DNA of 64,000 nt from the NCBI GenBank assembly GCA_937996685.1, contig CALKUP010000002.1:23003-87002 (forward strand), in the 5' to 3' direction. The stretch comes from an uncultured bacterium. Its GTDB lineage: Bacteria; Patescibacteriota; Patescibacteriia; UBA9570; XYC2-FULL-38-9. Of the stretch, positions 15,026 through 63,913 are shown piece after piece. The notes beneath the pieces were generated by a model. It was not told the DNA's origin. It saw nothing but the letters and a program-made list of their open reading frames with translations, and made no database searches. Every line of letters starts with the position of its first letter. Position 1 is the stretch's first letter. The translations under genes were made by a program, and so were the position numbers.

Positions 15026-15271
15026 CTATTTCTTACGTTTTACAGCTTTACGCTTTGCTGGTTTTTTCGCTACTTTCTTTTTCGCTACTTTTTTAACCAC
15101 CTTTTTCTTCGCAGCTGGTTTTTTCGCTACTTTTTTCTTAGCGACTTTCTTCACTGCTTTTTTCACGACTTTTTTCTTCGCTACTTTTTTTACTGCTTTT
15201 TTCGCTACGACTTTCTTAGCGACTTTTTTCTTTGCAGCTGGTTTCTTTGTTGCTTTTTTCTTTGTTGCCAT
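15026..15271 (-). CDS. Lys/Ala-rich histone H1-like nucleoid protein (KKAAKK repeats)
   Basis: The start MATKKKATKK is preceded by a strong SD (AAAGGGGGTG), and the product is made of KKVAKK/KPAAKK repeats. The ORF-track start at 15376 is probably an upstream extension. The mirror + strand ORF 15000-15338 (F/A/T repeats) is an artefact. Confidence 0.6.
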   Translation of the reverse strand: MATKKKATKKPAAKKKVAKKVVAKKAVKKVAKKKVVKKAVKKVAKKKVAKKPAAKKKVVKKVAKKKVAKKPAKRKAVKRKK

Positions 15272-15433
15272 TTTTAACACCCCCTTTCTTATATTTGATA
15301 GATATAGTATACCGTGTTGCGGTACAACTAAACAATAAAAAAAATACAAAAACTGTGGAAAACTTTTTATTGACACTGCTGATACCTCATGTTAAAAGGT
15401 ATATACATCATAACATAAGGTATAAAAAGAATT

Positions 15434-48810: not shown

Positions 48811-50310
48811 TTATGCGGTTTGTTGCGCGGTGTACGAATTGTTATTCGCGGGTGTGTCGTTGGTTGATTCCACGACCGTTATTTTGTGTTCTATTTTTGA
48901 AACCAGAAGTCCAATACGATAGCGGATTTCAAGCAGTTGCGATCGCAATGCTTCACTGACGTTTAATGACATTAAGATCGTGCATTGTTGATCAATGTTT
49001 TTCAGATTATCGCGTGCAGGATTGAGTGATCTGACAGAGTCTGCTGCAAAATCGTCAGTAACGTATTCACCGGCTGTGCGTAGCATGCGTAAGTCCATAT
49101 AATCAAGGAGCTCGGTAAATGTTGCTTCAAATGCCGCAATGGACGTTGGCGCGATGGTGTTCATGAGGTCCATTTTATAAATAAATTGGGGAGTCAGGCT
49201 TTCAAAATCTGTTGGAAATAATGACGGCAATCCATTGATTCGACGCTCAACCGCATTGTTTCGCAAGTTACGCATTGCTTGCGCGATGTTTCTGGTTTGC
49301 TCTTTCCAGATATCTGTTGTTGCGGCTTCAATTGCGGGAATAATGAAACTTTCTGCGCCTGTTGTCGTGGCTGCTTCGTCTTCATATCCTTCTTCGTCGT
49401 CTGATGCAGAATTTTCTGGATTCCGTTTTTTCCAATCTGCAAATTCATCAGCACGTTCAGTGAGCTGCGCGAGTAAATCAAGCGCGGCAATAACGGTTGC
49501 TAATTGACCTGGAGAAATATCAACACCGCCTTGCGTGAAGCGCTCTCCGGTGTTTAGTAGATTTTCAATGCCAGAGAATAAATCGCTCAAAGACATTGTG
49601 CCGAGTTCTTTAAGGAGTGGTTGTAATACATCGAGTAAGTTCGCAACGTCTTCGTGATTTGTTCCATCTACATCAAGTATAAAGTCGGTAAAGCGTTTTA
49701 AATCCGCTGCTTGATCAAGTGTTGATCGTGTTTCTGGTTCTGCAAATTCGATGTCAGGATTTCGATTGTCTGTTGGAGTTCGTATTTCACTCTCAGTAGA
49801 GGTGGCGTCTTTTGTTTCTGTGTTCGTAGTTTCGATGGGTGCTTGCTGTCGCGTTGTTTGTTTTTCTGCGACGGGCAAGGTTTTTTGCCAGGCTTGAAAT
49901 GGAACTTTATCAATCCGTGCTTGTTCGATTAAATCAAGTCCCGCATGCACAATATTGCGATAGTCAACTCCGATGGTCATCCCTGCATATTCAAATGGTT
50001 TGTCGTTGTCGAGTGATTCTGCGATATTCGCAAGCAGTTCAAAAATACCAGCATTGCCAGCTTCTTGGATCATCGGCGCGCATTCTGTCAAAAGTTTCAG
50101 TAACTCTTGATATTCTCGCATGGAAAACAAATCATCTTCTCCTTCCATTGTTTCTGCTCGATATTCGATATACTGCTTTAACGTTTTTGCGCCTTCTGGG
50201 GCAGGGAGTAGACCCGCTTCTTTTTCGGATTCAACAGTATGGATTGCTTGTGGGTGTTCTGGTGATTGAGACATACATGAGTAATGGTTATGACAAAATT
50301 GCCGTTGCAA
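48811..50310 (-). CDS. Hypothetical acidic protein
   Basis: Long ORF (499 aa), highly acidic, no recognisable motif. Confidence 0.4.
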   Translation of the reverse strand: MQRQFCHNHYSCMSQSPEHPQAIHTVESEKEAGLLPAPEGAKTLKQYIEYRAETMEGEDDLFSMREYQELLKLLTECAPMIQEAGNAGIFELLANIAESLDNDKPFEYAGMTIGVDYRNIVHAGLDLIEQARIDKVPFQAWQKTLPVAEKQTTRQQAPIETTNTETKDATSTESEIRTPTDNRNPDIEFAEPETRSTLDQAADLKRFTDFILDVDGTNHEDVANLLDVLQPLLKELGTMSLSDLFSGIENLLNTGERFTQGGVDISPGQLATVIAALDLLAQLTERADEFADWKKRNPENSASDDEEGYEDEAATTTGAESFIIPAIEAATTDIWKEQTRNIAQAMRNLRNNAVERRINGLPSLFPTDFESLTPQFIYKMDLMNTIAPTSIAAFEATFTELLDYMDLRMLRTAGEYVTDDFAADSVRSLNPARDNLKNIDQQCTILMSLNVSEALRSQLLEIRYRIGLLVSKIEHKITVVESTNDTPANNNSYTAQQTA

Positions 50311-51306: not shown

Positions 51307-51900
51307 ATGTCCTGGTATACTGTTCCCATGATATATTCAGGTTTTTTCATGCCGGCTTGGGGAGTGTTTGCGCTGGCGGTTCTGGCGCTGCTTTTGGGGA
51401 ATCCGGTTGTAGCAATTGTCTGCATCTATCTTGCGGCCTGGACGTTTGCGCTGGTGACGCGTAATACAGCATTGCAATATCAACTGTGCATTGGTTCGGC
51501 TATTTCATTGGCCTGGATGTCTGTGGGGCATAATCAATATGGATACGCAGAGCATTCCGTCGCATTATTTGGCATTACGATTTTTCCAGTGTTTGCGGTT
51601 CCGTCTGCGTTGATGGGTTTTTATCTGATTTATGAAACAGTGCATACAATGATCCCGAAGAGCACACCTGTGATTGATTGGTCACTGGTTATTTTTCTCG
51701 ATCTGTTTTTAGTCGTTGGAATGGAATATATCGGGTATCATTTTTTTCAAATCCACAATCTCGCAACCAGTCAGTATTCTGGCTTTACGTGGTGTAATTG
51801 TTTTCACGCGCCGTGGTGGATGCAGTTGGCGTACTTTAGTTTCCCTGTGATATTTTTTGCTGCTTTTCGGTTTTTGGAAAAACGCTTCTTACGTAAATAA
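51307..51900 (+). CDS. Hypothetical polytopic membrane protein
   Basis: Multiple hydrophobic helices; no motif recognised. Confidence 0.35.
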   Translation: MSWYTVPMIYSGFFMPAWGVFALAVLALLLGNPVVAIVCIYLAAWTFALVTRNTALQYQLCIGSAISLAWMSVGHNQYGYAEHSVALFGITIFPVFAVPSALMGFYLIYETVHTMIPKSTPVIDWSLVIFLDLFLVVGMEYIGYHFFQIHNLATSQYSGFTWCNCFHAPWWMQLAYFSFPVIFFAAFRFLEKRFLRK

Positions 51901-52472: not shown

Positions 52473-53723
52473 ATGTATTTTAGCAGACGCATATCAAGGC
52501 GTAGTATTGCAGTTGGGCATTCTCCGGATAACGGTTTTATTTTTTTGCTATTGAATGCTAGTATTAGCTCTATGACAAAACGAGATCGTGGATTTTTTGA
52601 AAACCGGCGCGAGGCACGTTTTCGTGTTGCAATAGAGAGTGAGGCTGAAAAACAGCGTTTTCATGACCCGCATCCGCGTCCAGAATTTTCATCTGATCGA
52701 GAAATTACTAATGAAGTTTTAGGAAGATATATACGATTTGCGCAGCGCTTAGGACAAATGGAAGATTGGTTACGGCGTCAATCCTTAGATCTATTGTCCA
52801 ATGATCGCATCATCGACATGATTCGTGAGTTGGATATTCCAGCAGGTGAAGGCAATGCTCGCGAACAAATTTTAGAATTTTGTCAGTGGTGGAATGAAGC
52901 TGCTAACCGAGCACTGAAGAAAGAGGGTGATGTCATGACACAAGAGGAGCTGATTGGCGACAAGTCTGTTGATGCTGAGGTATTAGCCGCCCGCTTTTTT
53001 CAACGGTACTTTCATGAGCAACCCGTGGGACGAGTTGAATATGAACGGAAAGGTTTTTTTCTTGTGTTGTACGTAAACGACAAGGCAGATTTTCAAAAAA
53101 CTCTTCAGAAGTCGGAAAGTGGTGACACGGTCGGATTTTTTAAAGCACAGACGTGGGTCGCTGAAGTTCATCCGTTGCTCGATATAAACGAGTATCATGT
53201 TATGTATCAAGAAGAGAATGTTCCATTAATCGTCGTGCGTGCGGAGAAAGGAGCTCCAGAGGCAGAATTTACCTTTGAGCATGAATTACAACACGCGCTT
53301 AATTTTAGTGTGTTTAGGATTCCAAAAAATTACCAACGAGCCAGTGATGTCCATTCATCTCAAGAGGTAAGACGCTTGGTTATTACAGATGAGGTGATTT
53401 CTCATATTCGTAGCGGCGATCCTGAACATTTCCTTGAGCTATATACAGAAGCAGTATATAAAAGGGTATTAGAAAGTTGCGTTTCAGAAACAGATGGCAA
53501 TCCAATAAAAGGAAGTCGAGAAGATTGGTTACGTACACTTGATGACATTAGTACTGCAATGAAAGAATTACGTGGAATACTCGAACCGCGCCATCTCTAT
53601 ACTACGAGAGAGTACCGCTTGGTGGCATATATGCTTACTCAATTTCCCATTGAGCGTTTTGCTGAAGTCATTAGAAAATTTGGCAAGCGCATGGCCGACA
53701 CATTTGGCGAGCATCCTCAATAG
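52473..53723 (+). CDS. Hypothetical protein with HExxH motif (possible metalloprotease-like)
   Basis: FEHELQHALN contains an HExxH motif. The start is probably an internal Met (MTKRDRG...). Tentative. Confidence 0.35.
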   Translation: MYFSRRISRRSIAVGHSPDNGFIFLLLNASISSMTKRDRGFFENRREARFRVAIESEAEKQRFHDPHPRPEFSSDREITNEVLGRYIRFAQRLGQMEDWLRRQSLDLLSNDRIIDMIRELDIPAGEGNAREQILEFCQWWNEAANRALKKEGDVMTQEELIGDKSVDAEVLAARFFQRYFHEQPVGRVEYERKGFFLVLYVNDKADFQKTLQKSESGDTVGFFKAQTWVAEVHPLLDINEYHVMYQEENVPLIVVRAEKGAPEAEFTFEHELQHALNFSVFRIPKNYQRASDVHSSQEVRRLVITDEVISHIRSGDPEHFLELYTEAVYKRVLESCVSETDGNPIKGSREDWLRTLDDISTAMKELRGILEPRHLYTTREYRLVAYMLTQFPIERFAEVIRKFGKRMADTFGEHPQ

Positions 53724-54003: not shown

Positions 54004-55497
54004 TTATAGTTTTTTGAGAAACTGGTAAATCTCGACCATCGCCCATGTGTCCATTTTACAATAGGCGAGTAGATCTTGTGCAATTTGCTGCTTTTCCTCC
54101 TCGTCGATCGATTTTGTCATCATTCGCTCCCAACGCTCGCTGGCTTGGTCACCTTTACGGATGTTCAATTCTTTGTAGGTCAGACTTGGAATAAGGACTG
54201 GGAGTATATTTTTAATACTTGATTTGCCTTTGAAATCAGGATCGACGTAAAGGTTGTTTGTGAAAATTGTTTCAAGGTCAAACATGGTTTCGTTCATTTC
54301 CTCAAAGAATCGTACGTGTTCAGGATGTAGTTGCGCCAGCTTTCGGTTTTGCTTTTTTTCATAAGCCGCGTGCCATGAAACGGCAGTACCTTTTTCCGAC
54401 ATATCTGCAACAAGTTGCTCAACTAAGGGTTTTGTTACTTCAGATTGTTTTTCTGTGATAAGGAACTCCGTATGCTCGACTGATCCGTCTTCATGTAAAA
54501 TGTGGAGAGAGTATTGAAACGGAACATGCTCATATGGCCCAAAACCATCAAAAAGGGGAATAGCTGCAATAAAGCCTTCATAGTCCAAGAAGTAGAGGGG
54601 AAATTGAAGTTCATTGAACATTTCTCGAATTGCCAAGCCATCAACAAAAGGCCTCTTCTGAATGTATGAAGAGATTTGGAGCTGTTGTCGGTCATTGAGT
54701 TTTTCTTCAATGACTTCTTCGAGCGTAAATCTTCCTTCATCGACCCAGTTCATCAGTTTCTTTTTGCTGTTTCCAATGCGATAGAGGTCGTGGATTGAGT
54801 ATTCAGGAACGACGGGGTTTGAATAGGCAAAGCTTGAACAATGAGCACTACGACCCTTGTATACACAATCACAACCGCTTTGTTCGTCCATTGCGAGCCA
54901 AATTTTCATTTCTTCCATTTCTCCCAAAACCTCAACTTCTACGTCTCGGATTTCATTGCTTATGTCTTCTGTAATAAACAGTTGATCATAATCAAGCTCG
55001 CCGTGCTTTCGGTATTCAGAGTTGAGATGTATGACTCCTGTTTTGACAACTCTTGCGCCACATTTTTGAATGACTTGCTTCTGAAAAGCCAAGTCTCTTA
55101 CATGATTACCAACGCCTGTTTTCTTTACTTCATTTGTTGCTTTGACTTCATAGAGCTCCCATCCGTTCAATCTGTTATCCCAAACTAAAACATCTGCACG
55201 AATAAAGAAGTTTTCAAATACGAATGTCCCTTGAAAAATTACCCTTGCCTTATCCGCAATAAGAAGGTTTGTATCTTCTATTGCTGTTGAACCGTGCGTG
55301 CTCACGAGAACACCATCAGGAAAGAGTTTGCGAGCAGCTTCGTCGGCGGCGTTTCCTTCTTCGATGATTTTCTTCTCAAAGTCAGATAGCTCAAAATCCT
55401 CAAAGAGTTCAGGTTTGTATTTTTTGAGCCACAGGTTTTTTCGGCAAAAACTGTACTCAAGGTAGTCGGTTTTTGTGATTTGCATAAGCTTAGCCAA
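54004..55497 (-). CDS. DUF2779-like two-domain nuclease (Cas4/RecB-like PD-(D/E)xK domain with Cys cluster plus C-terminal DEDDy-type exonuclease-like domain)
   Basis: N-terminal D...ELYEVKAT (PD-ExK-like) with Cys at SFCRK and a downstream CDCVYKGRSAHC cluster (Cas4-like C-x2-C-x5-C). The C-terminal region has YFLDYE (Exo I-like DxE) and YCKMD (Exo III YxxxD-like). Confidence 0.45.
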   Translation of the reverse strand: MAKLMQITKTDYLEYSFCRKNLWLKKYKPELFEDFELSDFEKKIIEEGNAADEAARKLFPDGVLVSTHGSTAIEDTNLLIADKARVIFQGTFVFENFFIRADVLVWDNRLNGWELYEVKATNEVKKTGVGNHVRDLAFQKQVIQKCGARVVKTGVIHLNSEYRKHGELDYDQLFITEDISNEIRDVEVEVLGEMEEMKIWLAMDEQSGCDCVYKGRSAHCSSFAYSNPVVPEYSIHDLYRIGNSKKKLMNWVDEGRFTLEEVIEEKLNDRQQLQISSYIQKRPFVDGLAIREMFNELQFPLYFLDYEGFIAAIPLFDGFGPYEHVPFQYSLHILHEDGSVEHTEFLITEKQSEVTKPLVEQLVADMSEKGTAVSWHAAYEKKQNRKLAQLHPEHVRFFEEMNETMFDLETIFTNNLYVDPDFKGKSSIKNILPVLIPSLTYKELNIRKGDQASERWERMMTKSIDEEEKQQIAQDLLAYCKMDTWAMVEIYQFLKKL

Positions 55498-55538: not shown

Positions 55539-56711
55539 ATGTTTATTAAAGACCCCGAAAAACATTTGTCAGATCAGGCTTTTTTCAGCTATATCAAGTT
55601 TTTTGACTATGTCGTTTTGAAAAAAGATATTGATAATTATGACGATGATGGAGCATTTAGTATGCGTGATGTCAGCTTAGGTGGTGAGGATCAGGCAATG
55701 GTTTTTAACCGTATCTTGGACGGGGCAATAGCTGTACAGGCATCAGTGATTGCCAAGAAAGGTTATCGTTTTGATGATCAGATGAAGGAAACAAAGGAGG
55801 GGCTAAATGAGAAAGGTACAGATAGTGAAAAAAAGCGTATCTCAAAACTGATCGCATCCATAGAACGTGGAAAGGCTATAACAATCCAAGATGCGGCTGC
55901 ATTGTCATGGTTTTGGTTTGAAGTATACGATAGCATTCGTTTTACTCCTGAGTTGTGCAAAGTAAGCCCTGAAGTCAAAGACAATTTACAATCTGCTATT
56001 GAAGGTTACTTAGATGATTTCATCAATGATAAACTTTCAATTTCAAAAAAGAATTATTATCGGTTTGAGCGTCAAAAAGCCATTTTGATTAAACTGATAG
56101 AAGAAGATAATAAAATTGCAAAGTATGGCAATAATTTTATCATTCGCGAAAAAATAGGCCGTGATGGCTCACTTGAGCGAGCGCCTGATTTTTGCATTGT
56201 TCAAACGGTTTACGCTTTGCAGAAATTAGGATATTTGAAAGTCATGAACGTCTGGGAGGAAAGACAATATAAAGACAATGCCTATGACGATTTGGTTCCC
56301 TTTGTGAACGTCAACATTCTGCTTGATGAAATGTTTATTGAGGAAATCAATAATAGCTATAAGAAAGGAAACCCAAAAAACGTATTTGAAAAATTTGATG
56401 AAAAGCGTGGGGTCTTATTTTTTGCAGGGAAGGAAATTACCATTTCAAAGAAAGGGAAAGAAACGGATGCGATTTTATTGATAAAGACACTCCTTAAAAA
56501 AGAACCGCAAACGTGGAAGTACAACGATGAAATTTTAGAAGATTGGGGATATACGGAAGATGACATGGAAAGGCTTCCGAAGAACAAGGTATATTTTGCT
56601 GCTCAAAAAGCAAATCAGGCGATTGCTTTGGTGGCTCAAATTGATGATTTTATTGAATGTAATACGACAAAAGCGCGTATAAACCCGAAATACATAAAAG
56701 TTGATGGATAA
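55539..56711 (+). CDS. Hypothetical protein (island cargo, unknown function)
   Basis: 390-aa ORF, AT-rich codon usage like the rest of the island. No recognisable motifs. Confidence 0.4.
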   Translation: MFIKDPEKHLSDQAFFSYIKFFDYVVLKKDIDNYDDDGAFSMRDVSLGGEDQAMVFNRILDGAIAVQASVIAKKGYRFDDQMKETKEGLNEKGTDSEKKRISKLIASIERGKAITIQDAAALSWFWFEVYDSIRFTPELCKVSPEVKDNLQSAIEGYLDDFINDKLSISKKNYYRFERQKAILIKLIEEDNKIAKYGNNFIIREKIGRDGSLERAPDFCIVQTVYALQKLGYLKVMNVWEERQYKDNAYDDLVPFVNVNILLDEMFIEEINNSYKKGNPKNVFEKFDEKRGVLFFAGKEITISKKGKETDAILLIKTLLKKEPQTWKYNDEILEDWGYTEDDMERLPKNKVYFAAQKANQAIALVAQIDDFIECNTTKARINPKYIKVDG

Positions 56712-56932: not shown

Positions 56933-58060
56933 ATGATTGATACAATTATCTTAATCATCCCAAGAGACAAGTTTATCTTTCTCGACCTTTCGAATGAAGG
57001 GGTGTCGAATTGGCATCTACAAAGCCACACCGACGCATACATGAAGTACATAAAAAATCCGAAGGTGCTCGCTAAGCGCACAGGCAAGTATTACCCACGC
57101 CTCACTGAGTATGTTCGCAAGTATGGTAACGATCGAAGTGTCAAAATTGAACTCTCGCTCCCAAAATTGATCTTTCTCAATAATCTTGATGAGCTGGAAG
57201 ACAAGGATTTCGATAGAGTTGTAGAAACACTACAGAGTCGTTTGAAGGAAATGGGAGTAGTAGTTGAACGTAAAGACATTGAAGTAGCAAAGGTCGGCAG
57301 CGTTCATTTTTCTAAAAACATTTTACTGCAAGATGGGTACACGTCGAACTATGTGATTTCTGAAATCGGCAAAATCGATTTACGAAAAACCTTTGACTTC
57401 GCCCGTGCGCGGTACATCAATGACGGTCAAAGTCTTTGTGCGCATACCACTTCACATGAGTTTGTTGTTTACGATAAAATCGCTGATCTACATAAAGGTC
57501 AAAAACGAGCGATTGATAAAGATCAAACTTCATTTCAACTCAGTTTATTCAAAGCCGAGAAAAAAGTATCGTACGAAGTCGTGCGTTTTGAAATTCGTTT
57601 GGCAAAGAAGCAAAAAATGAACAGCGTGCTCACAAAAATTGGTTATGAAAAAGACCCGATATTCAAAGATGTATTTAGTAGCGACCTGAGCATGAAAGTT
57701 GTGAGCCTGTATTGGGAGGGTGTTGTACAGACTAGAAATATCGGTCTATTTGCCACAGAAATGAGCAACAAGGAAAAATTGAGAAAAATTTACAAGCATT
57801 TTCCGAACATCAAACCTGCGCGTGCAATTTACCTTGTTGGCTTATTGAATCTTGCGCGAGAGCAGTACGGAATGGGAGAGTTACGTTCGATAGTAAGCGC
57901 AAAAAGTGGAGACAGAACGTGGTATCGAATAATGTCAGATTTTCGGAGTGTATCGGAGTTGATCGCACTACAAGATATTCGAGGCTGGGTGGGGCAAGTT
58001 AATTCTGCATTCACAAAATACAGACCACTTCGCCTGCAATTGCTAAGTAAAGAAAAGTAA
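56933..58060 (+). CDS. Hypothetical protein (island cargo, unknown function)
   Basis: 375-aa ORF. No catalytic motif identified (I looked for HUH/Rep motifs and found none). Confidence 0.4.
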   Translation: MIDTIILIIPRDKFIFLDLSNEGVSNWHLQSHTDAYMKYIKNPKVLAKRTGKYYPRLTEYVRKYGNDRSVKIELSLPKLIFLNNLDELEDKDFDRVVETLQSRLKEMGVVVERKDIEVAKVGSVHFSKNILLQDGYTSNYVISEIGKIDLRKTFDFARARYINDGQSLCAHTTSHEFVVYDKIADLHKGQKRAIDKDQTSFQLSLFKAEKKVSYEVVRFEIRLAKKQKMNSVLTKIGYEKDPIFKDVFSSDLSMKVVSLYWEGVVQTRNIGLFATEMSNKEKLRKIYKHFPNIKPARAIYLVGLLNLAREQYGMGELRSIVSAKSGDRTWYRIMSDFRSVSELIALQDIRGWVGQVNSAFTKYRPLRLQLLSKEK

Positions 58061-58069
58061 AGTATAATT

Positions 58070-58837
58070 TTGACTATGGTAAATACATTCAAAGGCGTGG
58101 CTTACGAGATTTTGAAAGAGGTGGGTAAGCCCCTTCACGCAGATGAGATTACGAAAATCGCTCTCGAGCGAGGGTGGTTAAACACAGCAGGAAAAACACC
58201 AGCGGCAACGATGAACGCTCAGCTTGTCGTTGATGTAAATAAAAATGGTGAAAAGTCTCTTTTTGTGAAGACTGGACCGAGTACATTTGCTCTCAATTCA
58301 GAAGTTCGATTAGCAAAGAAAACTAGCCTTACAGAAGAGCAGGAAGAAAAGGAGTATGCGGTTTCCAGTACCTTAATGTCGGTTCAAAAGGGAAACATCG
58401 TTGAGGCGCGTGTATCAGAATTAGTGTTATTATATGGAGCGAACTTGTCATGTTATCGGCCACTGACTGATGACGAAGGAATTGATCTGATTGTAAAAGA
58501 AAAAGGGAGTCTCAAATCCATTTACATTCAGATTAAAAGCAACTTTAGTGATGATTTTGGAAAACCGTTTGTGGCAACAGTTCGGAACAAGAGTGTAGTC
58601 GATAATTATGCTATGGCGTATGTGTTCTGTTTATTTGATACTGGAAAAGCTGATGTTCACGATTATATTTGGTTTGTGCCCGCCCCTGATTTTATTCGCA
58701 TGGCAGGTAAAGACAAGAATGATTTACTTGGTTTTGTGTCTGGCAAACAGAAGAAGAGTAGCAACAAGTGGGATGCTTTTATGATTGATAAAAGAGATTT
58801 AGCGAATAGAGTTATGGAGCAATTAAAACGCATATGA
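58070..58837 (+). CDS. HARE-HTH domain fused to a PD-(D/E)xK restriction-endonuclease-like domain
   Basis: N-terminal A.EIL..G.PL...EI......G........P.AT....L motif with ...FALN (HARE-HTH). C-terminal D-EGIDLIV-KEK PD-(D/E)xK core (Mrr-like). Confidence 0.5.
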   Translation: MTMVNTFKGVAYEILKEVGKPLHADEITKIALERGWLNTAGKTPAATMNAQLVVDVNKNGEKSLFVKTGPSTFALNSEVRLAKKTSLTEEQEEKEYAVSSTLMSVQKGNIVEARVSELVLLYGANLSCYRPLTDDEGIDLIVKEKGSLKSIYIQIKSNFSDDFGKPFVATVRNKSVVDNYAMAYVFCLFDTGKADVHDYIWFVPAPDFIRMAGKDKNDLLGFVSGKQKKSSNKWDAFMIDKRDLANRVMEQLKRI

Positions 58838-59014: not shown

Positions 59015-60940
59015 ATGACAACAACACAACAAATTCTCAATAAAATTTTCAAAAACCCCGAGCAGGACCTTTTGATGTTTGATGACTTGTCCAAGATAGA
59101 CATCTACGAAAAAGATGAAGGAAAGTTCTACATCAAGGCTATTTCAAAAATGGATGAAGAGAAAAAAGTTTATGATGCTAAAACTGGAAAAGGCGCTCCT
59201 GAAGAAATTGTTCGACAGCTGTATCTTGTAAAACTCACAAAGCATTACAAGTACCCCAAAGACCTTATTGAGCTTGAAAAGCACGTCAACTTTGGACGTG
59301 AAATAAAGCGTGCAGACATTGTTGTGTACCGACCAGATGGCATTACACCTAAAATCATCATTGAAGTAAAAGCTCCTAATCAAGAGAATGATGTACAGCA
59401 ATTGAAGTCATATCTAAATGCTGAAGGCGCGCCTGTGGGTGTTGCGGTAAACGGCAAAACTCGCCTCATTCTTTATCGTCCATACCCGAAAGATTTTGAT
59501 GACACATTGGATGACATTCCAGCTTCAGATGAAGAGGTTGAAGACGTGCTTGCAAAACGAAAGACCCTGAACGACTTGAGAGAAGATGACCTCAAGGAAA
59601 CTATCAAAACTCTTGAAGAGCTTGTGCTTGCAAACTCAGGACACGATAGCTTTGAAGAAATCTTCAAGATCATATACGCCAAGCTTTTTGATGAAAAAGA
59701 AGCATTAAGCCGTCCAAATCAAGAGCTTCACTTCAGAAAAAGTCCGACAGGAAAACCCGAAGAAACAAAACGCATCATTGACGAACTTTTTGAAGAAGCA
59801 AAAGCAGAATGGTCTGATGTGTTTGAGCGTACTGATAGGATAAAGCTCAGTCCTGAGCATCTTTCTGTGTGTGTCGGGGAACTTCAAGATGTTCGATTGT
59901 TCGGGGCAAACCTGCGCATTATTGATGAAGCATTTGAGTATCTCTTGCCAGATGTTGCTAAAGGCAAGAAAGGTCAATACTTTACACCGCGCGTTGTCAT
60001 CGATATGTGTGTTCAGATGATGAACCCGCAAAAAAAAGAATACGTTATTGATACTGCTTGTGGGAGCGCTGGTTTTTTGGTGCATGCCATGCAGTATGTT
60101 TGGAAAAATTTACCCACTCTTGAAGCACGGAAAGAATATGCAAGTAGATATTTGTGGGGTGTAGATTTTGACGAGAAATCAACAAAAATTAGCCGCGCAA
60201 TTATGTTGATTGCGGGAGATGGCAAGAGTCATATTTTCAAGTCATCTTCATTAGATACCCGAGAGTGGCCTGAGCGTTTCAAAAGTGAATTACAAGATTT
60301 GAATCTTGTACAGGAGTTTGATGACTATGAGCAAAATCGAGAGAATCGAGCTACATTACAACACCTCGAATTTGATGTGCTTCTCGCTAATCCGCCATTC
60401 GCAGGCGAAATTAAAGAGAAGCATCTCTTGACTCAGTATGTTCTTGGTAAAAACAATAAAGGCAAGCTTCAAAATAAGGTAGAGCGACACTTGCTCTTCA
60501 TTGAACGCAACCTTGAGTTTGTAAAAGCAGGTGGTCGTTTAGCGGTTGTGTTGCCACAAGGCATCTTTAACAACACAAGCCAAGAGTATGTTCGCAAACA
60601 CATAATGCGGAAAGCGCGCATTCTTGCGGTTGTAGGGCTGCATGGAAACTCTTTTAAGCCTCACACAGGAACAAAGACATCAATCATCTTCTTGCAGAAG
60701 TGGGCAGATGAGGAGCTTGATGCAAGCGGTAGTCCGAAGGTTGCTGACTATCCGATTTTCTTTGCTACTCAAAAGCAATCGTTCAAAAATAACAGTGGCG
60801 ATTACATCTTTGAGAAAGACAAGGGCGGTCAAATTGTTAAAGACGACAACGGTAATCCTAAATATCTAAGTGACCTTGATGAAATCGCTGAAGCGTTTGT
60901 GGCTTGGGGCAAAGAGCAAGGTCTTAGCTTTCTGAAATAA
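59015..60940 (+). CDS. hsdM: Type I restriction-modification N6-adenine DNA methyltransferase subunit with N-terminal HsdR_N-like (PD-(D/E)xK-like) extension
   Basis: Motif IV NPPF (LANPPFAG), motif I region DTACGSAGFL, and the HsdM helical domain. The N-terminal ~170 aa contain D-IVVY...IIIEVK resembling the HsdR N-terminal nuclease-like domain. Confidence 0.7.
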   Translation: MTTTQQILNKIFKNPEQDLLMFDDLSKIDIYEKDEGKFYIKAISKMDEEKKVYDAKTGKGAPEEIVRQLYLVKLTKHYKYPKDLIELEKHVNFGREIKRADIVVYRPDGITPKIIIEVKAPNQENDVQQLKSYLNAEGAPVGVAVNGKTRLILYRPYPKDFDDTLDDIPASDEEVEDVLAKRKTLNDLREDDLKETIKTLEELVLANSGHDSFEEIFKIIYAKLFDEKEALSRPNQELHFRKSPTGKPEETKRIIDELFEEAKAEWSDVFERTDRIKLSPEHLSVCVGELQDVRLFGANLRIIDEAFEYLLPDVAKGKKGQYFTPRVVIDMCVQMMNPQKKEYVIDTACGSAGFLVHAMQYVWKNLPTLEARKEYASRYLWGVDFDEKSTKISRAIMLIAGDGKSHIFKSSSLDTREWPERFKSELQDLNLVQEFDDYEQNRENRATLQHLEFDVLLANPPFAGEIKEKHLLTQYVLGKNNKGKLQNKVERHLLFIERNLEFVKAGGRLAVVLPQGIFNNTSQEYVRKHIMRKARILAVVGLHGNSFKPHTGTKTSIIFLQKWADEELDASGSPKVADYPIFFATQKQSFKNNSGDYIFEKDKGGQIVKDDNGNPKYLSDLDEIAEAFVAWGKEQGLSFLK

Positions 60941-60942
60941 CT

Positions 60943-62358
60943 ATGTCTTGGCAAACCATTGTAAAAGAAAATAAGCTCGCAGTAGCAGAAATACCTTTTG
61001 ATGAGGTATTGAATATCAATCGGCTTGATGCTGAGTATTTTGACCCTTTTTACCTTGAGCAAGACAGTGTACTCAATGGTAAAAATCTTGTTCCAATCAC
61101 GCAGTATATTGATATTTCAGACGGAAATCACTTGTCTATTACGGAACATTTTGTTGAAGAGGGAGGTGTTCCTTATTTTCGAGGACAAGACGTAAACAAC
61201 ATATTCCTCAACTCAGCGAGCCCGATGAGGATATCAGAAGAAATCTACAAAAAGGGTTGGATGAAGAGATCTCATTTTAAGGCTAATGATATTCTGCTTT
61301 CCATTGTAGGTACTATAGGCGGCTTATCCTTTGTCCCTGACGATATGGGTGAAGCATCAGGTAGTTGCAAAATAGCAATACTCAGACCAAAAGACACATC
61401 CTTTTCAAAGATTGTCATGGTCTTTCTGCTTGGAAAGTATGGTCAGTATCAACTAAAGAGAATGACCCGTGGTGCAGTGCAAATGGGTATCATTCTTGAA
61501 GATATACCTAAAATTAAAATCCCTAATTTTTCAGAAACAATTGCTTCAGAAGTAAGTCACTTGATTTCAAATGTATTTGAAAGCGAGACTCTGTCACGAA
61601 AACGTTACGAGGAAGCAGAGCAGATGCTTCTTAAAGAAATTAACCTTGAAGGCTACAAAGGAACTGAAGAAGCTGTATCGGTTCGAAACTTCAGTGAAGC
61701 ATTGTCTCATAATCGTTTTGATGCAGAGTATTGGCAGCCTGACTATGATGTCATTCTTGATACGCTCTCATCATATAAAAAAGGTGTCAGCACTATAGGT
61801 GATGAGTTCAAACAACTCAAAAACAATTTCAAGAAGGACAAGGAAAAAGAATACAGCTATATTGAGATTGGCGATGTTAATGTATCGACGGGTGAAGTGG
61901 ATAGAAACATAATCATCGGTGCTGAGTTGCCTGCAAACGCCAAAATCAAGCTTGGTAAGCGACAACTCATCACTTCAAAGGTCAGGCCAAATAGAGGTGC
62001 AACAGCTATACTTGATGATCACGAGGGTTATATCGGAAGTGGTGCATTTACCGTATTGACCGAGCAAGAAAACATCAATCTTGAAACGCTAATGGTGTTC
62101 CTGAAAATGCGACCTATCCGAGAGTTGCTTCTACGATACAACACGGGAACTTCATATCCCGTTATCACTGATGCTGATGTACTGAAGTTGCCAATACCTT
62201 TGATTGATAAAGTGGTTCAGAAGAAAATCAGCGAACTTGTAAGTGAGTCCGCTAAAGAGCGACAGGAAGCAAAGGCTTTACTCGAAAAGGCAAAGCGAGC
62301 TGTAGAAATCTTTGTTGAAAAGGATGAACAAAGCGCATTAAAATATCTTCAAGCATGA
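60943..62358 (+). CDS. hsdS: Type I restriction-modification specificity subunit (two target-recognition domains)
   Basis: Two TRD halves separated by conserved coiled-coil repeats. Immediately follows hsdM. Confidence 0.7.
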   Translation: MSWQTIVKENKLAVAEIPFDEVLNINRLDAEYFDPFYLEQDSVLNGKNLVPITQYIDISDGNHLSITEHFVEEGGVPYFRGQDVNNIFLNSASPMRISEEIYKKGWMKRSHFKANDILLSIVGTIGGLSFVPDDMGEASGSCKIAILRPKDTSFSKIVMVFLLGKYGQYQLKRMTRGAVQMGIILEDIPKIKIPNFSETIASEVSHLISNVFESETLSRKRYEEAEQMLLKEINLEGYKGTEEAVSVRNFSEALSHNRFDAEYWQPDYDVILDTLSSYKKGVSTIGDEFKQLKNNFKKDKEKEYSYIEIGDVNVSTGEVDRNIIIGAELPANAKIKLGKRQLITSKVRPNRGATAILDDHEGYIGSGAFTVLTEQENINLETLMVFLKMRPIRELLLRYNTGTSYPVITDADVLKLPIPLIDKVVQKKISELVSESAKERQEAKALLEKAKRAVEIFVEKDEQSALKYLQA

Positions 62359-63878
62359 AAGCAGTCATCCTAGCTCGAGTATCAACGGAAGAACAACGAG
62401 AAGCTGGAAACTCTTTGCCTGCACAGATTGCCCGTATCGAAAATTATTGCGATAAGAAAAACTTCATTGTAGTTGAGACTTTTAGTTTTGATGAAAGTGC
62501 ATATAAAACAAAGCGAGACGAGTTTGATCGTATTCTTGAATATCTCAAAAATACCAATGAAAAAATTGCGGTCTGTTTCGATAAAGTAGATCGTCTGTCA
62601 CGCAATCAATTTGATAAACGTGTTTCGTTGCTTTATGAAAAAGCGGTTGCAGGAGACATTGAATTGCATTTTATTTCAGATGGTCAGGTTATCAATGATC
62701 AAATGTCTGCTGTTGAGAAGTTTCAGTTTGGAATGAGTCTCGGTTTAGCAAAGTATTATTCAGACGCTATTTCTGACAATGTAAAACGTGCATATGAGCA
62801 AAAACGTCGAAAAGGTGAATGGATAGGCAAAGCTCCCATTGGCTATAAAAATGCTGTTGATCTAAAAGGAAATAAAACAATTGAAATTGATGTCATAGTC
62901 GCGCACTTACTTGCAAAAGTATTTGAGTTATATAGCACAGGTAATTATTCGTATGAGTCGATTATTGATGAGCTCACAAAGCAAGGATTAAAAACTCAAG
63001 GAGGTAAGCGAATGACCAAGAGTGTAATTGAGAAGATTATAAAGAATCCGTTTTATTGTGGCATCGCTAGTTCACCGACTCACGGACAGTATCCGCACAA
63101 GTATGAACAGTTGATTACAAAGGAGCTGTTTGATCGCTGTCAGGAGATCCGTTTGAAGAAGCGAAAATTTCCAAATAAAGAGAAATCGGAGAAGTATGTA
63201 TTTAAGGGATTGTTGCGCTGTCAAAATTGCGGCTGTGCCATAACGCCAGAAAAGAAAACGAAACCAAGTGGTAAAACCTACACCTATTATTCTTGCACGA
63301 ATGCGAAGAAGATATGCAAACGTGTGTATGTTTCCGAAACCGAGCTTCTAAGGCCCGTAGAAGCGATTTTAGAGCGTTTTGAGCGTATTCCTGTAGCCAC
63401 GCAAGATAAGATTGTTGAATCGCTCCGTAAGTCTTCTGAGGCAGAGGTTGAATTTCATAAGGCTCAAGTGCTACGCATCCGACAAGATCAAGATATGTAC
63501 ACACAGCGGAAAGATGCCTTGCTCGATCTTTTGCTTGATAAGAGTATTACCAAGGAACAGTATGACAAAAAATTGCAGGAATACAGCGACAAGCTGCAAT
63601 TGCTCAACATTGAATACGAAGAACATACAAAAGCGGACTGTGATTACCAAACCACAATAGCCACAGTGTTTTCTTTAGCTCGACGTGCAAAACAAATCTT
63701 TTATAGTTCTGAAATCAATGAGCAACGTGCGTTTATTCGATACTTACTTCAGAACCCGACTGTAAATGAAAAGAAGCTACATTTTACAGTAGCTTCTCCA
63801 TACAATTCTCTCCTCGAACTATCTGATAGTCCTTTTGTGCGGGAGCGACGAGACTCGAACTCGCGACCTCTGCCGTGA
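62355..63878 (+). CDS. Large serine recombinase (resolvase/invertase catalytic domain plus recombinase domain plus zinc ribbon)
   Basis: N-terminal AVILARVSTEEQ with catalytic Ser. A central recombinase domain. A Cys cluster CQNCGC...C. The 3' end runs about 39 nt into tRNA-Asp. Confidence 0.75.
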   Translation: MKAVILARVSTEEQREAGNSLPAQIARIENYCDKKNFIVVETFSFDESAYKTKRDEFDRILEYLKNTNEKIAVCFDKVDRLSRNQFDKRVSLLYEKAVAGDIELHFISDGQVINDQMSAVEKFQFGMSLGLAKYYSDAISDNVKRAYEQKRRKGEWIGKAPIGYKNAVDLKGNKTIEIDVIVAHLLAKVFELYSTGNYSYESIIDELTKQGLKTQGGKRMTKSVIEKIIKNPFYCGIASSPTHGQYPHKYEQLITKELFDRCQEIRLKKRKFPNKEKSEKYVFKGLLRCQNCGCAITPEKKTKPSGKTYTYYSCTNAKKICKRVYVSETELLRPVEAILERFERIPVATQDKIVESLRKSSEAEVEFHKAQVLRIRQDQDMYTQRKDALLDLLLDKSITKEQYDKKLQEYSDKLQLLNIEYEEHTKADCDYQTTIATVFSLARRAKQIFYSSEINEQRAFIRYLLQNPTVNEKKLHFTVASPYNSLLELSDSPFVRERRDSNSRPLP

Positions 63879-63913
63879 CAGGGCAGCGCTCTAACCAGCT
63901 GAGCTACGCCCCC
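63840..63913 (-). tRNA. tRNA-Asp (anticodon GUC)
   Basis: Reverse complement GGGGGCGTAGCTCAGCTGGTTAGAGCGCTGCCCTGTCACGGCAGAGGTCGCGAGTTCGAGTCTCGTCGCTCCCG; anticodon loop CTGTCAC. Confidence 0.8.

Follow-up and report, generated by a model that had tools for sequence, protein, structure and literature searches.

A DUF2779-family protein with predicted Cas4-like and DEDDy-type nuclease domains is encoded by the terminal gene of a tRNA-Asp-linked restriction-modification island in a patescibacterium

In the 64,000-nt stretch of patescibacterial DNA that we analyzed (the window), the terminal gene of a low-GC, tRNA-Asp-linked island of ~10 kb encodes a protein of the DUF2779 family, in which a Cas4-like nuclease is genuinely fused to a proofreading-type 3´-5´ exonuclease domain, both with predicted activities. 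In CPR bacteria, DUF2779 genes lie directly downstream of restriction-modification (RM) genes unusually often. With somewhat better than even confidence, we read the protein, which combines a PD-(D/E)xK nuclease (D98/E113/K115) with a DEDDy nuclease, as an ancillary processor of DNA ends that often accompanies RM or defense modules. The family is large, is known computationally, and includes a quasi-essential member of the minimal cell JCVI-syn3.0. What is new here is the genomic context of the DUF2779 gene; for the window, the gain is mainly that one gene, and the mobile RM island that ends with it, are now solidly annotated.

Results

The open reading frame taken by the initial annotation begins at 55497 with a TTG that lies in frame, four codons before a likely ATG start (Table 1). 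All homologs begin with M-x-I-T-K-T-D and the database copy of the protein (P0001) is 493 aa long, and therefore the ATG at 55485 is most likely the true start, judging from the sequence. Residue numbers refer to this 493-aa protein. The suggestion that it is DUF2779-like was borne out by a match to Pfam PF11074 (123.3 bits against a cut-off of 23.3, E 9.3e-36), while NCBIfam NF045869, the UU173 family, was not reached (65.5 against 225 bits). There are more than 3,651 homologs in a database clustered at 90% identity, and 7,300 cluster representatives at 50% identity (E<=1e-3). Direct Pfam searches with 70 diverse relatives matched DUF2779 in all 70, RNase_H_2 in 28, and Cas_Cas4 in 13 (best 1.5e-8). 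The genome carries a second DUF2779 copy (P0037), with which a metagenome scan retrieved only relatives of <=56% identity; two copies are also present in other MAGs. The protein had no match in PHROGs, and isolated phage genomes contained no homolog. A PDB sequence search, with the protein or with a 70-sequence profile, returned nothing meaningful, the hits to ProX (E 0.025) and complex I NUNM (E 0.55) being chance matches. Scans for promoters and terminators around the gene gave background levels.

Table 1. Features of the DUF2779 gene and the adjoining island, in window positions.
Feature	Position	Strand	Basis
ORF, 497 aa from TTG	54004..55497	-	ORF list
DUF2779-family two-nuclease CDS, 493 aa + stop	54004..55485	-	ORF list, Pfam PF11074, homolog N-termini, codon check
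N-terminal Cas4/RecB-like PD-(D/E)xK nuclease core, aa 1-200	54886..55485	-	
N-terminal cysteine C14	55444-55446	-	
Candidate catalytic residue D98	55192-55194	-	
Candidate catalytic residue E113	55147-55149	-	
Candidate catalytic residue K115	55141-55143	-	
Further candidate catalytic residues D131, Q135			
Cysteine cluster and helical linker between nuclease domains, aa 201-295	54601..54885	-	AlphaFold
Three-cysteine cluster C205-x-C207-x8-C216	54838..54873	-	
C-terminal DEDDy (DnaQ/PolB-exo-like, RNase H fold) 3´-5´ exonuclease domain, aa 296-493, predicted	54007..54600	-	
Key residue D301	54583-54585	-	
Key residue E303	54577-54579	-	
Key residue E376	54358-54360	-	
Key residue D403	54277-54279	-	
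Key residue Y475	54061-54063	-	
Key residue D479	54049-54051	-	
Divergent island gene, 390 aa, no assigned function	55539..56711	+	
Conserved 375-aa protein, predicted Rep_trans-like (rolling-circle replication initiator) fold	56933..58060	+	
HARE-HTH protein, weak PD-(D/E)xK/Mrr-like C-terminal signal	58070..58837	+	Pfam HARE-HTH 9e-21; PDDEXK_5 0.0027 and Mrr_cat 0.0087, both below cut-off
RM enzyme, HSDR_N-type nuclease fused to N6-adenine methyltransferase, BcgI-like/type I-like	59015..60940	+	Pfam N6_Mtase 5e-36, HSDR_N_2 5.8e-22, Eco57I 1.9e-13; PADLOC MTase_I 1e-182
RM specificity (S) subunit	60943..62358	+	Pfam Methylase_S 1.7e-9; PADLOC Specificity_I 8e-24
Large serine recombinase, tRNA-proximal island end	62355..63878	+	Pfam Resolvase 7.8e-22, Recombinase 4.3e-16, Zn_ribbon_recom; NCBIfam XisF/Ccr-like matches below cut-off
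tRNA-Asp(GTC)	63839..63913	-	ARAGORN; Rfam tRNA 68.9 bits

Both folds named by the initial annotation, Cas4-like and DEDDy-like, are supported by the Pfam matches of relatives and by Foldseek, whose top three matches are Cas4 structures. The PD-(D/E)xK active site (D, ExK) is present, and the proposed ELYEVK core lies at E110-K115. Over 136 relatives of 32-57% identity, which were used for all conservation values unless stated otherwise, D98 is kept in 99%, E113 in 97%, and K115 and Q135 in 98% each. With the exception of C205 (48%), the named motif residues are kept in 87-100% of these relatives.

The cysteines had been described as one N-terminal residue and a C-x2-C-x5-C cluster. The N-terminal cysteine (C14) and a cluster of three were indeed found, but the spacing is C-x-C-x8-C. 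Together they make up the 1+3 set expected of a Cas4/AddB-type [4Fe-4S] site, and C14, C205, C207, and C216 probably hold such a cluster. All four are invariant among 21 close homologs; in the wider set, C14 is kept in 87%, C207 in 94%, and C216 in 90%. The low value for the C205 column arises because cluster spacing varies across the family, with the third cysteine shifting position in diverse relatives (CxCx8C in 53 sequences, Cx5Cx5C in 21). The cysteine-cluster region is modeled at low confidence (pLDDT ~60-70), and aa 201-295 as a whole, mainly short helices, have lower AlphaFold confidence (block means 58-85).

The C-terminal domain has an RNase H-like fold. YFLDYE (Y298-E303) and YCKMD (Y475-D479), which had been noticed as reminiscent of Exo I and Exo III, are where they were said to be: Exo I (D-x-E) consists of D301 and E303 on strand 297-305, and Exo III (Y-x3-D) of Y475 and D479 in the C-terminal helix. 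D301, E303, E376, Y475, and D479 are conserved in 100% of relatives and D403 in 99%. The invariant E376, in W-x3-[FY]-E, starts the helix after strand 4, and D403, also invariant, lies within N-x3-F-D. E376 is probably the acidic residue of Exo II, with D403 as the alternative, which would make the site DE(E/D)Dy. An hhalign comparison of the family profile with the exonuclease region of E. coli Pol II, entered as one sequence, yielded no alignment. Structurally, the domain best matches DNA exonucleases and the proofreading domains of DNA polymerases; the list of matches also includes RNase T, RNase D, ERI1, and Rrp6.

The DUF2779 gene and the RM genes of the island are on opposite strands and are transcribed away from each other. 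With a GC content of 0.410, the DUF2779 gene falls within the range of the island genes (0.36-0.41) and below that of the left flank (0.42-0.50). At the other end, the last 40 nt of the serine recombinase gene run into the tRNA-Asp gene, and in the locus L032 a 57% identical recombinase overlaps tRNA-Asn likewise. The island probably integrated at tRNA-Asp(GTC), which would be its right-hand boundary. No att-type direct repeat of the tRNA-Asp 3´ end was found, as is not unexpected with serine recombinases, and the left boundary is therefore drawn only from GC and the comparison with L032. The 390-aa gene next to DUF2779 matched nothing in Pfam, NCBIfam, PHROGs, or PADLOC; its homologs likewise adjoin DUF2779 in L032 (BLAST 36% over 380 aa) and L066. 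The 375-aa Rep_trans-like protein occurs in Patescibacteria only and recurs near RM genes and DUF2779. In PADLOC-DB v2, the DUF2779 protein had a weak Cas4 match only (7e-5), and the neighboring methyltransferase and S genes matched RM models strongly.

Among relatives in Patescibacteria, RM genes stand upstream of DUF2779 in 18 of 52 loci and downstream in none of 57 (Fisher 2.6e-7), a bias that is partly reproduced by a metagenome set (11/23 upstream, 4/23 downstream). The Pfam families of upstream neighbors include ResIII (13), RhuM (7), N6_N4_Mtase (6), SWI2_SNF2 (6), N6_Mtase (4), and MmeI (3), none of which is among the top 25 downstream families. The closest relatives follow a type III Mod-Res pair at a gap of 3 nt (P0009) and OLD/HsdM/HigBA (P0003), respectively, and on plasmids and IMG/VR contigs the neighbors are helicases, ATPases, WYL, GmrSD, OLD, and BrxL. 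YgjP-like genes, which often go with type I RM, are found beyond DUF2779 in several loci. In Clostridia, SbcD-SbcC lies upstream of DUF2779, and in one CPR genome RecQ lies downstream.

This strong upstream enrichment of RM and defense genes supports the defense or DNA-processing role that the initial annotation had proposed from the position of the gene at the island edge. Part of the family, however, lives in housekeeping contexts, as in Saccharibacteria, where the gene directly follows rpoD, and in the minimal mycoplasma, where it is quasi-essential. In more than half of the CPR loci, RM genes are absent from the vicinity of DUF2779. We rejected the idea of one conserved operon, since the commonest neighbor cluster is present in only 7 of 75 loci. 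We also rejected short intergenic gaps as operon evidence: co-directional neighbors within 60 nt are found in CPR at 41/68 upstream and 30/72 downstream positions, and since these genomes are tightly packed on both flanks, such gaps alone are no proof of operons.

Discussion

In the mechanism that we propose, aa 1-~216 would form a Cas4/RecB-type PD-(D/E)xK nuclease with its metal site at D98/E113/K115, and aa ~296-493 a DEDDy two-metal 3´-5´ exonuclease using D301, E303, E376 and/or D403, Y475, and D479. Given that there is no helicase domain in the DUF2779 protein, we infer an action at DNA ends. Single-stranded 5´ tails would be the substrate of the Cas4-like domain and 3´ tails that of the DEDDy domain, and jointly the two domains could trim or degrade both strands of broken or linear DNA. 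The protein might then be an ancillary end-processing or end-degrading nuclease for systems that make DNA breaks or translocate on them, mainly RM modules in Patescibacteria, and SbcCD, RecQ, or helicase/ATPase operons in other lineages. The contexts found, RM in CPR bacteria, SbcCD in Clostridia, RecQ, and helicases and ATPases on plasmids, all point to DNA-end processing. A defense-only role for the whole family is ruled out by the RM-free CPR loci, the rpoD context, and the quasi-essential mycoplasma homolog on phage-free medium.

A more specific version of this proposal is tentative. DUF2779 proteins might be helicase-less stand-ins of RecBCD/AddAB type that travel in Patescibacteria with RM or defense modules of any type (I, IIB/IIG, III), often on islands that integrate at tRNA genes and include a serine or tyrosine recombinase along with a Rep_trans-like gene. 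They would borrow the translocase of a partner (HsdR, Res, SbcC, RecQ), either to break down invader DNA after restriction or to resect breaks that the system has made in its own host. If true, DUF2779 would be a previously unrecognized ancillary part of restriction-based immunity in reduced genomes, and the same end-processing activity would explain the quasi-essential homolog of the minimal mycoplasma.

The housekeeping contexts raise another reading, which we regard as possible though rather doubtful: in reduced genomes, the protein may be a nuclease of repair, recombination, or nucleotide recycling that takes the place of RecJ or of the nuclease components of RecBCD/AddAB, and adjoins islands merely because elements integrate at nearby tRNAs or hot spots. 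The mycoplasma homolog is quasi-essential without phage and on rich medium, and a DUF2779 transposon mutant was among the M. bovis mutants of a cell-culture screen. Besides the rpoD-DUF2779 arrangement of Saccharibacteria, tmRNA/tRNA, SmpB, and trigger factor genes lie upstream in L008 and L028, and housekeeping genes downstream in L089; SbcCD, RecQ, LexA, and DinB among the neighbors are repair genes. Several loci have same-strand upstream tRNAs, as expected if islands insert between the tRNA and DUF2779. Yet the layout with DUF2779 at the end recurs with different tRNAs (Asp, Asn) and different integrases (serine recombinases in this island and L032, a tyrosine integrase in L087), and the island-like GC of the gene, the second copies in this genome and other MAGs, the defense-like operons on plasmids and IMG/VR contigs, and the YgjP-like genes all weigh against a mere bystander. 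That the protein instead serves maintenance or transfer of the mobile element, processing excised or rolling-circle intermediates with the Rep_trans-like protein and the serine recombinase, or attacking competing DNA, is unlikely. The predicted fold of the 375-aa neighbor, the recombinases at the island end, the presence of DUF2779 on plasmids, and the trio of Rep-like, RM, and DUF2779 genes in L009, L017, L032, L040, and L066 would fit, but a Rep-like gene is found in only about 6 of ~75 loci, most DUF2779 genes have neither a recombinase nor a Rep gene nearby, and isolated phage genomes lack homologs.

Two further readings concern the substrate and the Cas4 likeness. DEDD domains include many RNases, four of which appear in the match list, and the M. 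bovis screen that yielded the DUF2779 mutant also yielded nanoRNase mutants, as might be expected of an RNA exonuclease in RNA turnover or nanoRNA degradation. We consider this very unlikely, since DNA enzymes head the structural matches, the fold of the Cas4/RecB-type partner domain is that of a DNA nuclease, and the neighbors are DNA enzymes. A Cas4 that trims prespacers in CRISPR adaptation was rejected, and we give it next to no chance: the structural likeness to Cas4 of Cas4-Cas1-Cas2 complexes, the weak PADLOC match, and the Cas4 label given to one homolog by JGI are outweighed by the lack of any CRISPR-like repeat array within the window, of cas1/cas2 or any other cas family in the surveyed neighborhoods (none among 348 neighbor proteins), and of a Pfam Cas_Cas4 (PF01930) match of the protein at E<=1.

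The two-nuclease architecture itself is not new. DUF2779 was described as family F.17, an RNase H-like, predicted 3´-5´ exonuclease that co-occurs with DUF83 (Majorek et al., 2014; PMC3985635), and both domains of MMSYN1_0389 of JCVI-syn3.0 have been predicted to be active (PMC13621843, 2026). The present protein shares with PF11074/DUF2779 (F.17, MMSYN1_0389, UU173-related) the domain, the full-length two-domain architecture, and the conserved D/E/K and DEDDy residues, with Tyr, not His. Its clade differs in length (~494 aa, against >600 aa in mollicutes) and in keeping all four cysteines, of which MMSYN1_0389 has two; the setting also differs, an RM island here and a minimal core genome there. 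Cas4 (SSO0001 4IC1; 7MI4 and 8D3L in complex with Cas1-Cas2; Cas_Cas4/DUF83) has in common the D...ExK metal site and 1+3 cysteines, which are spaced Cx2Cx5C in Cas4 rather than CxCx8C. Unlike Cas4, the present protein has no CRISPR-cas context, is fused to a DEDDy exonuclease, and, in contrast to the 13 relatives above, has no direct Cas_Cas4 match.

A precedent for an RM association is found in UvrD-Cas4-like fusions (pfam12705 branch) and DPANN solo-Cas4 with RM; the fusions also join a Cas4-like nuclease to a second DNA-processing module, and most often adjoin type III RM, with WYL regulators (Hudaiberdiev et al., 2017; PMC5704561). Such RM-associated proteins were read as an ancillary defense or recombination factor (PMC5704561). 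Type III Mod/Res and WYL genes are also seen around DUF2779, but the partner domain is a 3´-5´ exonuclease instead of an SF1 helicase, the Cas4-like subfamily is different, and DUF2779 goes with RM of types I, IIB/IIG, and III alike.

DEDDy/DEDDh exonucleases (PolB proofreading domains, E. coli ExoI, epsilon, TREX1, B. subtilis MrfB 8UN9) share Exo I D-x-E, Exo III Y-x3-D, and the invariant acidic residue that starts the helix after strand 4. They have N-x2-3-[FY]-D at Exo II, where DUF2779 probably has a Glu (W-x3-[FY]-E376), next to an extra invariant D403, and the DUF2779 chain includes no polymerase or helicase partner. Functional analogy extends to AddAB/RecBCD/AdnAB and Dna2/Exo5, with a RecB-type nuclease, a probable Fe-S cluster (as in AddB, Dna2, Exo5), and a presumed action on DNA ends. 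Unlike AddAB/RecBCD/AdnAB, DUF2779 has no helicase motor, and its second nuclease is of DEDD type; HsdR, Res, SbcCD, or RecQ might supply the motor. Lastly, TM0106/COG2251 (TIGR03491; F.13, PF13482 + DUF83-like; PMC3985635) is another family that joins a RecB/Cas4-like nuclease to an exonuclease domain of RNase_H_2 type. The present protein matches TIGR03491 weakly and below cut-off (27.4 against 97.45 bits), and the PF13482 model weakly as well; domain order and family differ, and AAA domains are often part of COG2251 proteins (PMC3985635).

A DUF2779 protein with two nuclease folds

The initial annotation read this gene as a Cas4/RecB-like PD-(D/E)xK domain with four cysteines fused to a DEDDy-like exonuclease domain. 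This reading is right and has good support; only the start codon, the spacing of the cysteines and the Exo II residue need minor correction. Both the ORF and the three motifs that it named were recovered (see the table). The 497 aa of the ORF list are counted from a TTG codon; because the identical database protein (P0001) has 493 aa and all homologs open with M-x-I-T-K-T-D, the true start is probably the ATG at 55485. A single N-terminal cysteine (C14) and a three-cysteine cluster are present as described, but the cluster is spaced C205-x-C207-x8-C216, not C-x2-C-x5-C.

Assignment to the DUF2779 family (PF11074) is secure, with a Pfam match at E 9.3e-36, far over the gathering score. Below threshold, Pfam also gave RNase_H_2 (0.002) and a PolA-type 3´-5´ exonuclease model (0.12), NCBIfam gave sub-threshold matches only, to the UU173 and TM0106 RecB-like nuclease families, and PADLOC gave a weak match to Cas4 (7e-5). 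A search of a database clustered at 90% identity gave more than 3,651 matching proteins, the best 120 of which are all about 494 aa long and 55-65% identical to the DUF2779 protein, their named sources being Patescibacteria (Magasanikbacteria, Uhrbacteria and Nomurabacteria). Among representatives of a 50% clustering there were 7,300 matches at E<=1e-3 and 1,920 at <=1e-30, and nearly all of the best 150 of the 7,300 aligned over their full length. When 70 diverse relatives were scanned one by one, DUF2779 matched in all 70, RNase_H_2 in 28 (best 5e-7), Cas_Cas4/DUF83 in 13 (best 1.5e-8) and PDDEXK_1 in two.

A sequence-only search for solved structures detected none for this protein. An AlphaFold2 model built with 21 homologs as input reached a mean pLDDT of 87 and a pTM of 0.81, with lower confidence limited to residues ~201-270, which carry the clustered cysteines and a helical linker. 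Foldseek, used as an independent test, returned Cas4 as the top three structures, which, together with the Cas_Cas4 and RNase_H_2 matches among the relatives, bears out both nuclease folds. Their catalytic residues are intact, the D/E/K and DEDDy positions being kept at 97-100% in 136 relatives of 32-57% identity: D98 (99%), E113 (97%) and K115 (98%) in the PD-(D/E)xK domain, and D301, E303, E376, Y475 and D479 (100% each) and D403 (99%) in the exonuclease. D131 and Q135, downstream of ExK, are conserved at 97-98%. By predicted secondary structure E376 opens the helix after strand 4, within W-x3-[FY]-E, and would thus occupy the canonical Exo II position, with D403 on the next strand; either of the two may be the fourth metal ligand. 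C476 (54058-54060), next to the catalytic tyrosine (Y475-C476-x2-D479), is likewise found in 100% of these relatives.

C14, C207 and C216 are conserved at 87-94% in the same sample, and the other cluster cysteine moves between subfamilies (CxCx8C, n=53; Cx5Cx5C, n=21; two-cysteine variants, n=13). In the close clade all four are invariant, and a putative Fe-S cysteine set is plausible.

These folds have been predicted before. Within the RNase H-like superfamily, Majorek et al. (2014; PMC3985635) assigned DUF2779 to the exonuclease clade as family F.17, predicted that it has 3´-5´ exonuclease activity, and observed that it co-occurs with DUF83, a PD-(D/E)xK domain. A 2026 mSphere paper (PMC13621843) examined MMSYN1_0389, a quasi-essential JCVI-syn3.0 gene, as a fusion of a Cas4-like nuclease with a DEDD nuclease in which Tyr replaces His; both domains were predicted to be active, and the authors concluded that a role beyond immunity is required. 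That protein keeps two of the four cysteines, whereas the close clade described here has the full set. The structural reading is therefore right but already described computationally, and the protein is a further, experimentally untouched member of a known family; the literature we found mentioning DUF2779 reports no biochemistry.

Restriction-modification genes upstream of DUF2779

Neighborhoods were surveyed in 80 loci from species-representative genomes, with ORFs called crudely. A single conserved DUF2779 operon was rejected, as the commonest neighbor cluster occurs in only 7/75 loci. In the Patescibacteria clade (at least 50% identity), the association with restriction-modification (RM) and defense genes is statistically clear, in line with the defense or DNA-processing role initially suggested. 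RM genes, identified through their homology with RM seed proteins, occur upstream in 18/52 loci and downstream in 0/57 (Fisher p 2.6e-7), and within three genes in 11/52 and 0/57, respectively. In a second set, of de-duplicated metagenome contigs, the counts were 11/23 upstream and 4/23 downstream (p 0.057). Scanned with Pfam in an unbiased way, the 136 proteins encoded one to three genes upstream gave ResIII (13), RhuM (7), N6_N4_Mtase (6), SWI2_SNF2 (6), N6_Mtase (4), and MmeI_Mtase, T1R_D3 and Eco57I (3 each). These families are absent from the top 25 Pfam families of 137 downstream proteins, which are ABC transporters, YgjP-like proteins, formyltransferase and HD domains.

The nearest relatives whose context is known share this arrangement. 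A second DUF2779 copy (P0037; 509 aa, 60% identical) is encoded outside the window on the same 241,424-bp contig, and its ortholog P0009 (L087) starts 3 nt behind a type III Mod-Res pair, in an island that also encodes a tyrosine integrase. P0003 is preceded by an OLD-like ATPase, HsdM and HigB/HTH and followed by housekeeping genes, and P0055 is preceded by a complete type I system. Two copies also occur in several other MAGs. Because CPR genomes are compact on both flanks of DUF2779, short gaps alone are no proof of co-transcription. The RM neighbors parallel published cases: UvrD-Cas4-like fusions mostly adjoin type III Mod/Res genes with WYL regulators, DPANN solo-Cas4 genes adjoin RM genes, and both were interpreted as ancillary defense or recombination factors (Hudaiberdiev et al., 2017; PMC5704561).

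A tRNA-associated island

Features of the DUF2779 protein and its surroundings (window positions unless residues are given)
Feature	Position	Strand	Remarks
499-aa ORF	48811-50310	-	no Pfam, NCBIfam or PHROGs match
197-aa ORF	51307-51900	+	no Pfam, NCBIfam or PHROGs match
416-aa ORF	52473-53723	+	no Pfam, NCBIfam or PHROGs match
DUF2779 ORF	54004-55497	-	497 aa from TTG
ELYEVK motif	aa 110-115		DUF2779 protein
YFLDYE motif	aa 298-303		DUF2779 protein
YCKMD motif	aa 475-479		DUF2779 protein
390-aa protein	55539-56711	+	right of DUF2779; no Pfam, NCBIfam or PHROGs match
375-aa protein			right of DUF2779, divergent; predicted Rep_trans-like fold
HARE-HTH protein	58070-58837	+	weak PD-(D/E)xK/Mrr signal; precedes RM module
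RM module	59015-62358	+	641-aa protein (HSDR_N nuclease domain and N6-adenine methyltransferase), separate S subunit
Large serine recombinase and tRNA-Asp	62355-63913		3´ end of recombinase overlaps tRNA-Asp

The genes to the right of DUF2779 are transcribed divergently from it and share its GC content (0.36-0.41), as against 0.42-0.50 for those to the left (416-aa protein, DUF1761, MgtE, P-type ATPase, TypA and DEAD helicase). The RM module resembles BcgI/type IIB or type I systems, and it gave weaker PADLOC matches to MADS mad2/mad5. The layout recurs in an Uhrbacteria locus (L032), with tRNA-Asn, a serine recombinase, RM cargo, homologs of the 375- and 390-aa proteins, and DUF2779; the 390-aa protein also has a homolog beside DUF2779 in L066. 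Since the recombinase gene overlaps the 3´ end of tRNA-Asp by 40 nt in the window, and its 57% identical counterpart in L032 overlaps tRNA-Asn by 42 nt (recombinase and tRNA at 1306-2916), the data suggest that CPR bacteria harbor a family of integrative islands that target tRNA genes. Searches of the window found no att-type repeat of tRNA-Asp and no CRISPR array. A degenerate T-rich tandem repeat (periods 12/15/27/39, unit ~TTTTTTCGCTAC) lies at 15062-15274.

Repair, restriction or both

Other lineages place the gene differently. In Acutalibacteraceae and two IMG/VR contigs (L075, L079, L083, L084; L116, L120), SbcD-SbcC lies immediately upstream in the same orientation, with 8-54 nt between genes in L079 and L083, a repair-type context for a distant branch of the family; RecQ follows immediately downstream in one CPR genome. 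In Saccharibacteria (L062-L064, L067, L074) DUF2779 begins 4-7 nt after rpoD (sigma-70), a housekeeping context that speaks against defense as its sole function. On plasmids, including those of Aliarcobacter (L122) and Planktothrix (L123), the neighbors are a PD-(D/E)xK protein with DnaB-C and WYL proteins at some loci, and a DEAD helicase with an ATPase and a PLD nuclease, or an AAA ATPase, at others. IMG/VR contigs (L090-L121) add WYL/WCX (5), SbcC-like proteins, UvrD, GmrSD, OLD and BrxL, and no homolog was found in the isolated phage genomes searched. Such groups, which lie beside distant DUF2779 homologs on mobile DNA, may be uncatalogued defense operons.

The main rival explanation, that DUF2779 is a core repair nuclease merely flanking an integration hot spot, draws on the housekeeping contexts in part of the family, on the tRNAs upstream of the gene in several loci and on the quasi-essential mycoplasma homolog. 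Against it stand the same terminal position in islands with different tRNAs and different classes of recombinase, a GC content like that of the island, genomes with two copies, and the presence of the gene on plasmids. The two readings are compatible, as a nuclease that processes DNA ends could serve repair and restriction together. The protein would act on DNA ends with both polarities, by Cas4/RecB-type 5´ processing and DEDDy 3´-5´ trimming, and, because it is without a motor, would work beside translocases or break-making machines encoded by its neighbors. That it assists the restriction systems of reduced genomes as a RecBCD-like accessory lacking a helicase is a tentative idea, and we would sooner expect it to fail than to hold. 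The additions made here are modest: the directional RM link in Patescibacteria, the complete set of cysteines, and the recurrence of a tRNA-integrated island that encodes a Rep_trans-like protein.

In three CPR loci LexA is encoded no more than three genes upstream of DUF2779, and in L089 (10205-13636) it is found a few genes downstream together with a DinB-type polymerase, which makes a link to the SOS response possible.
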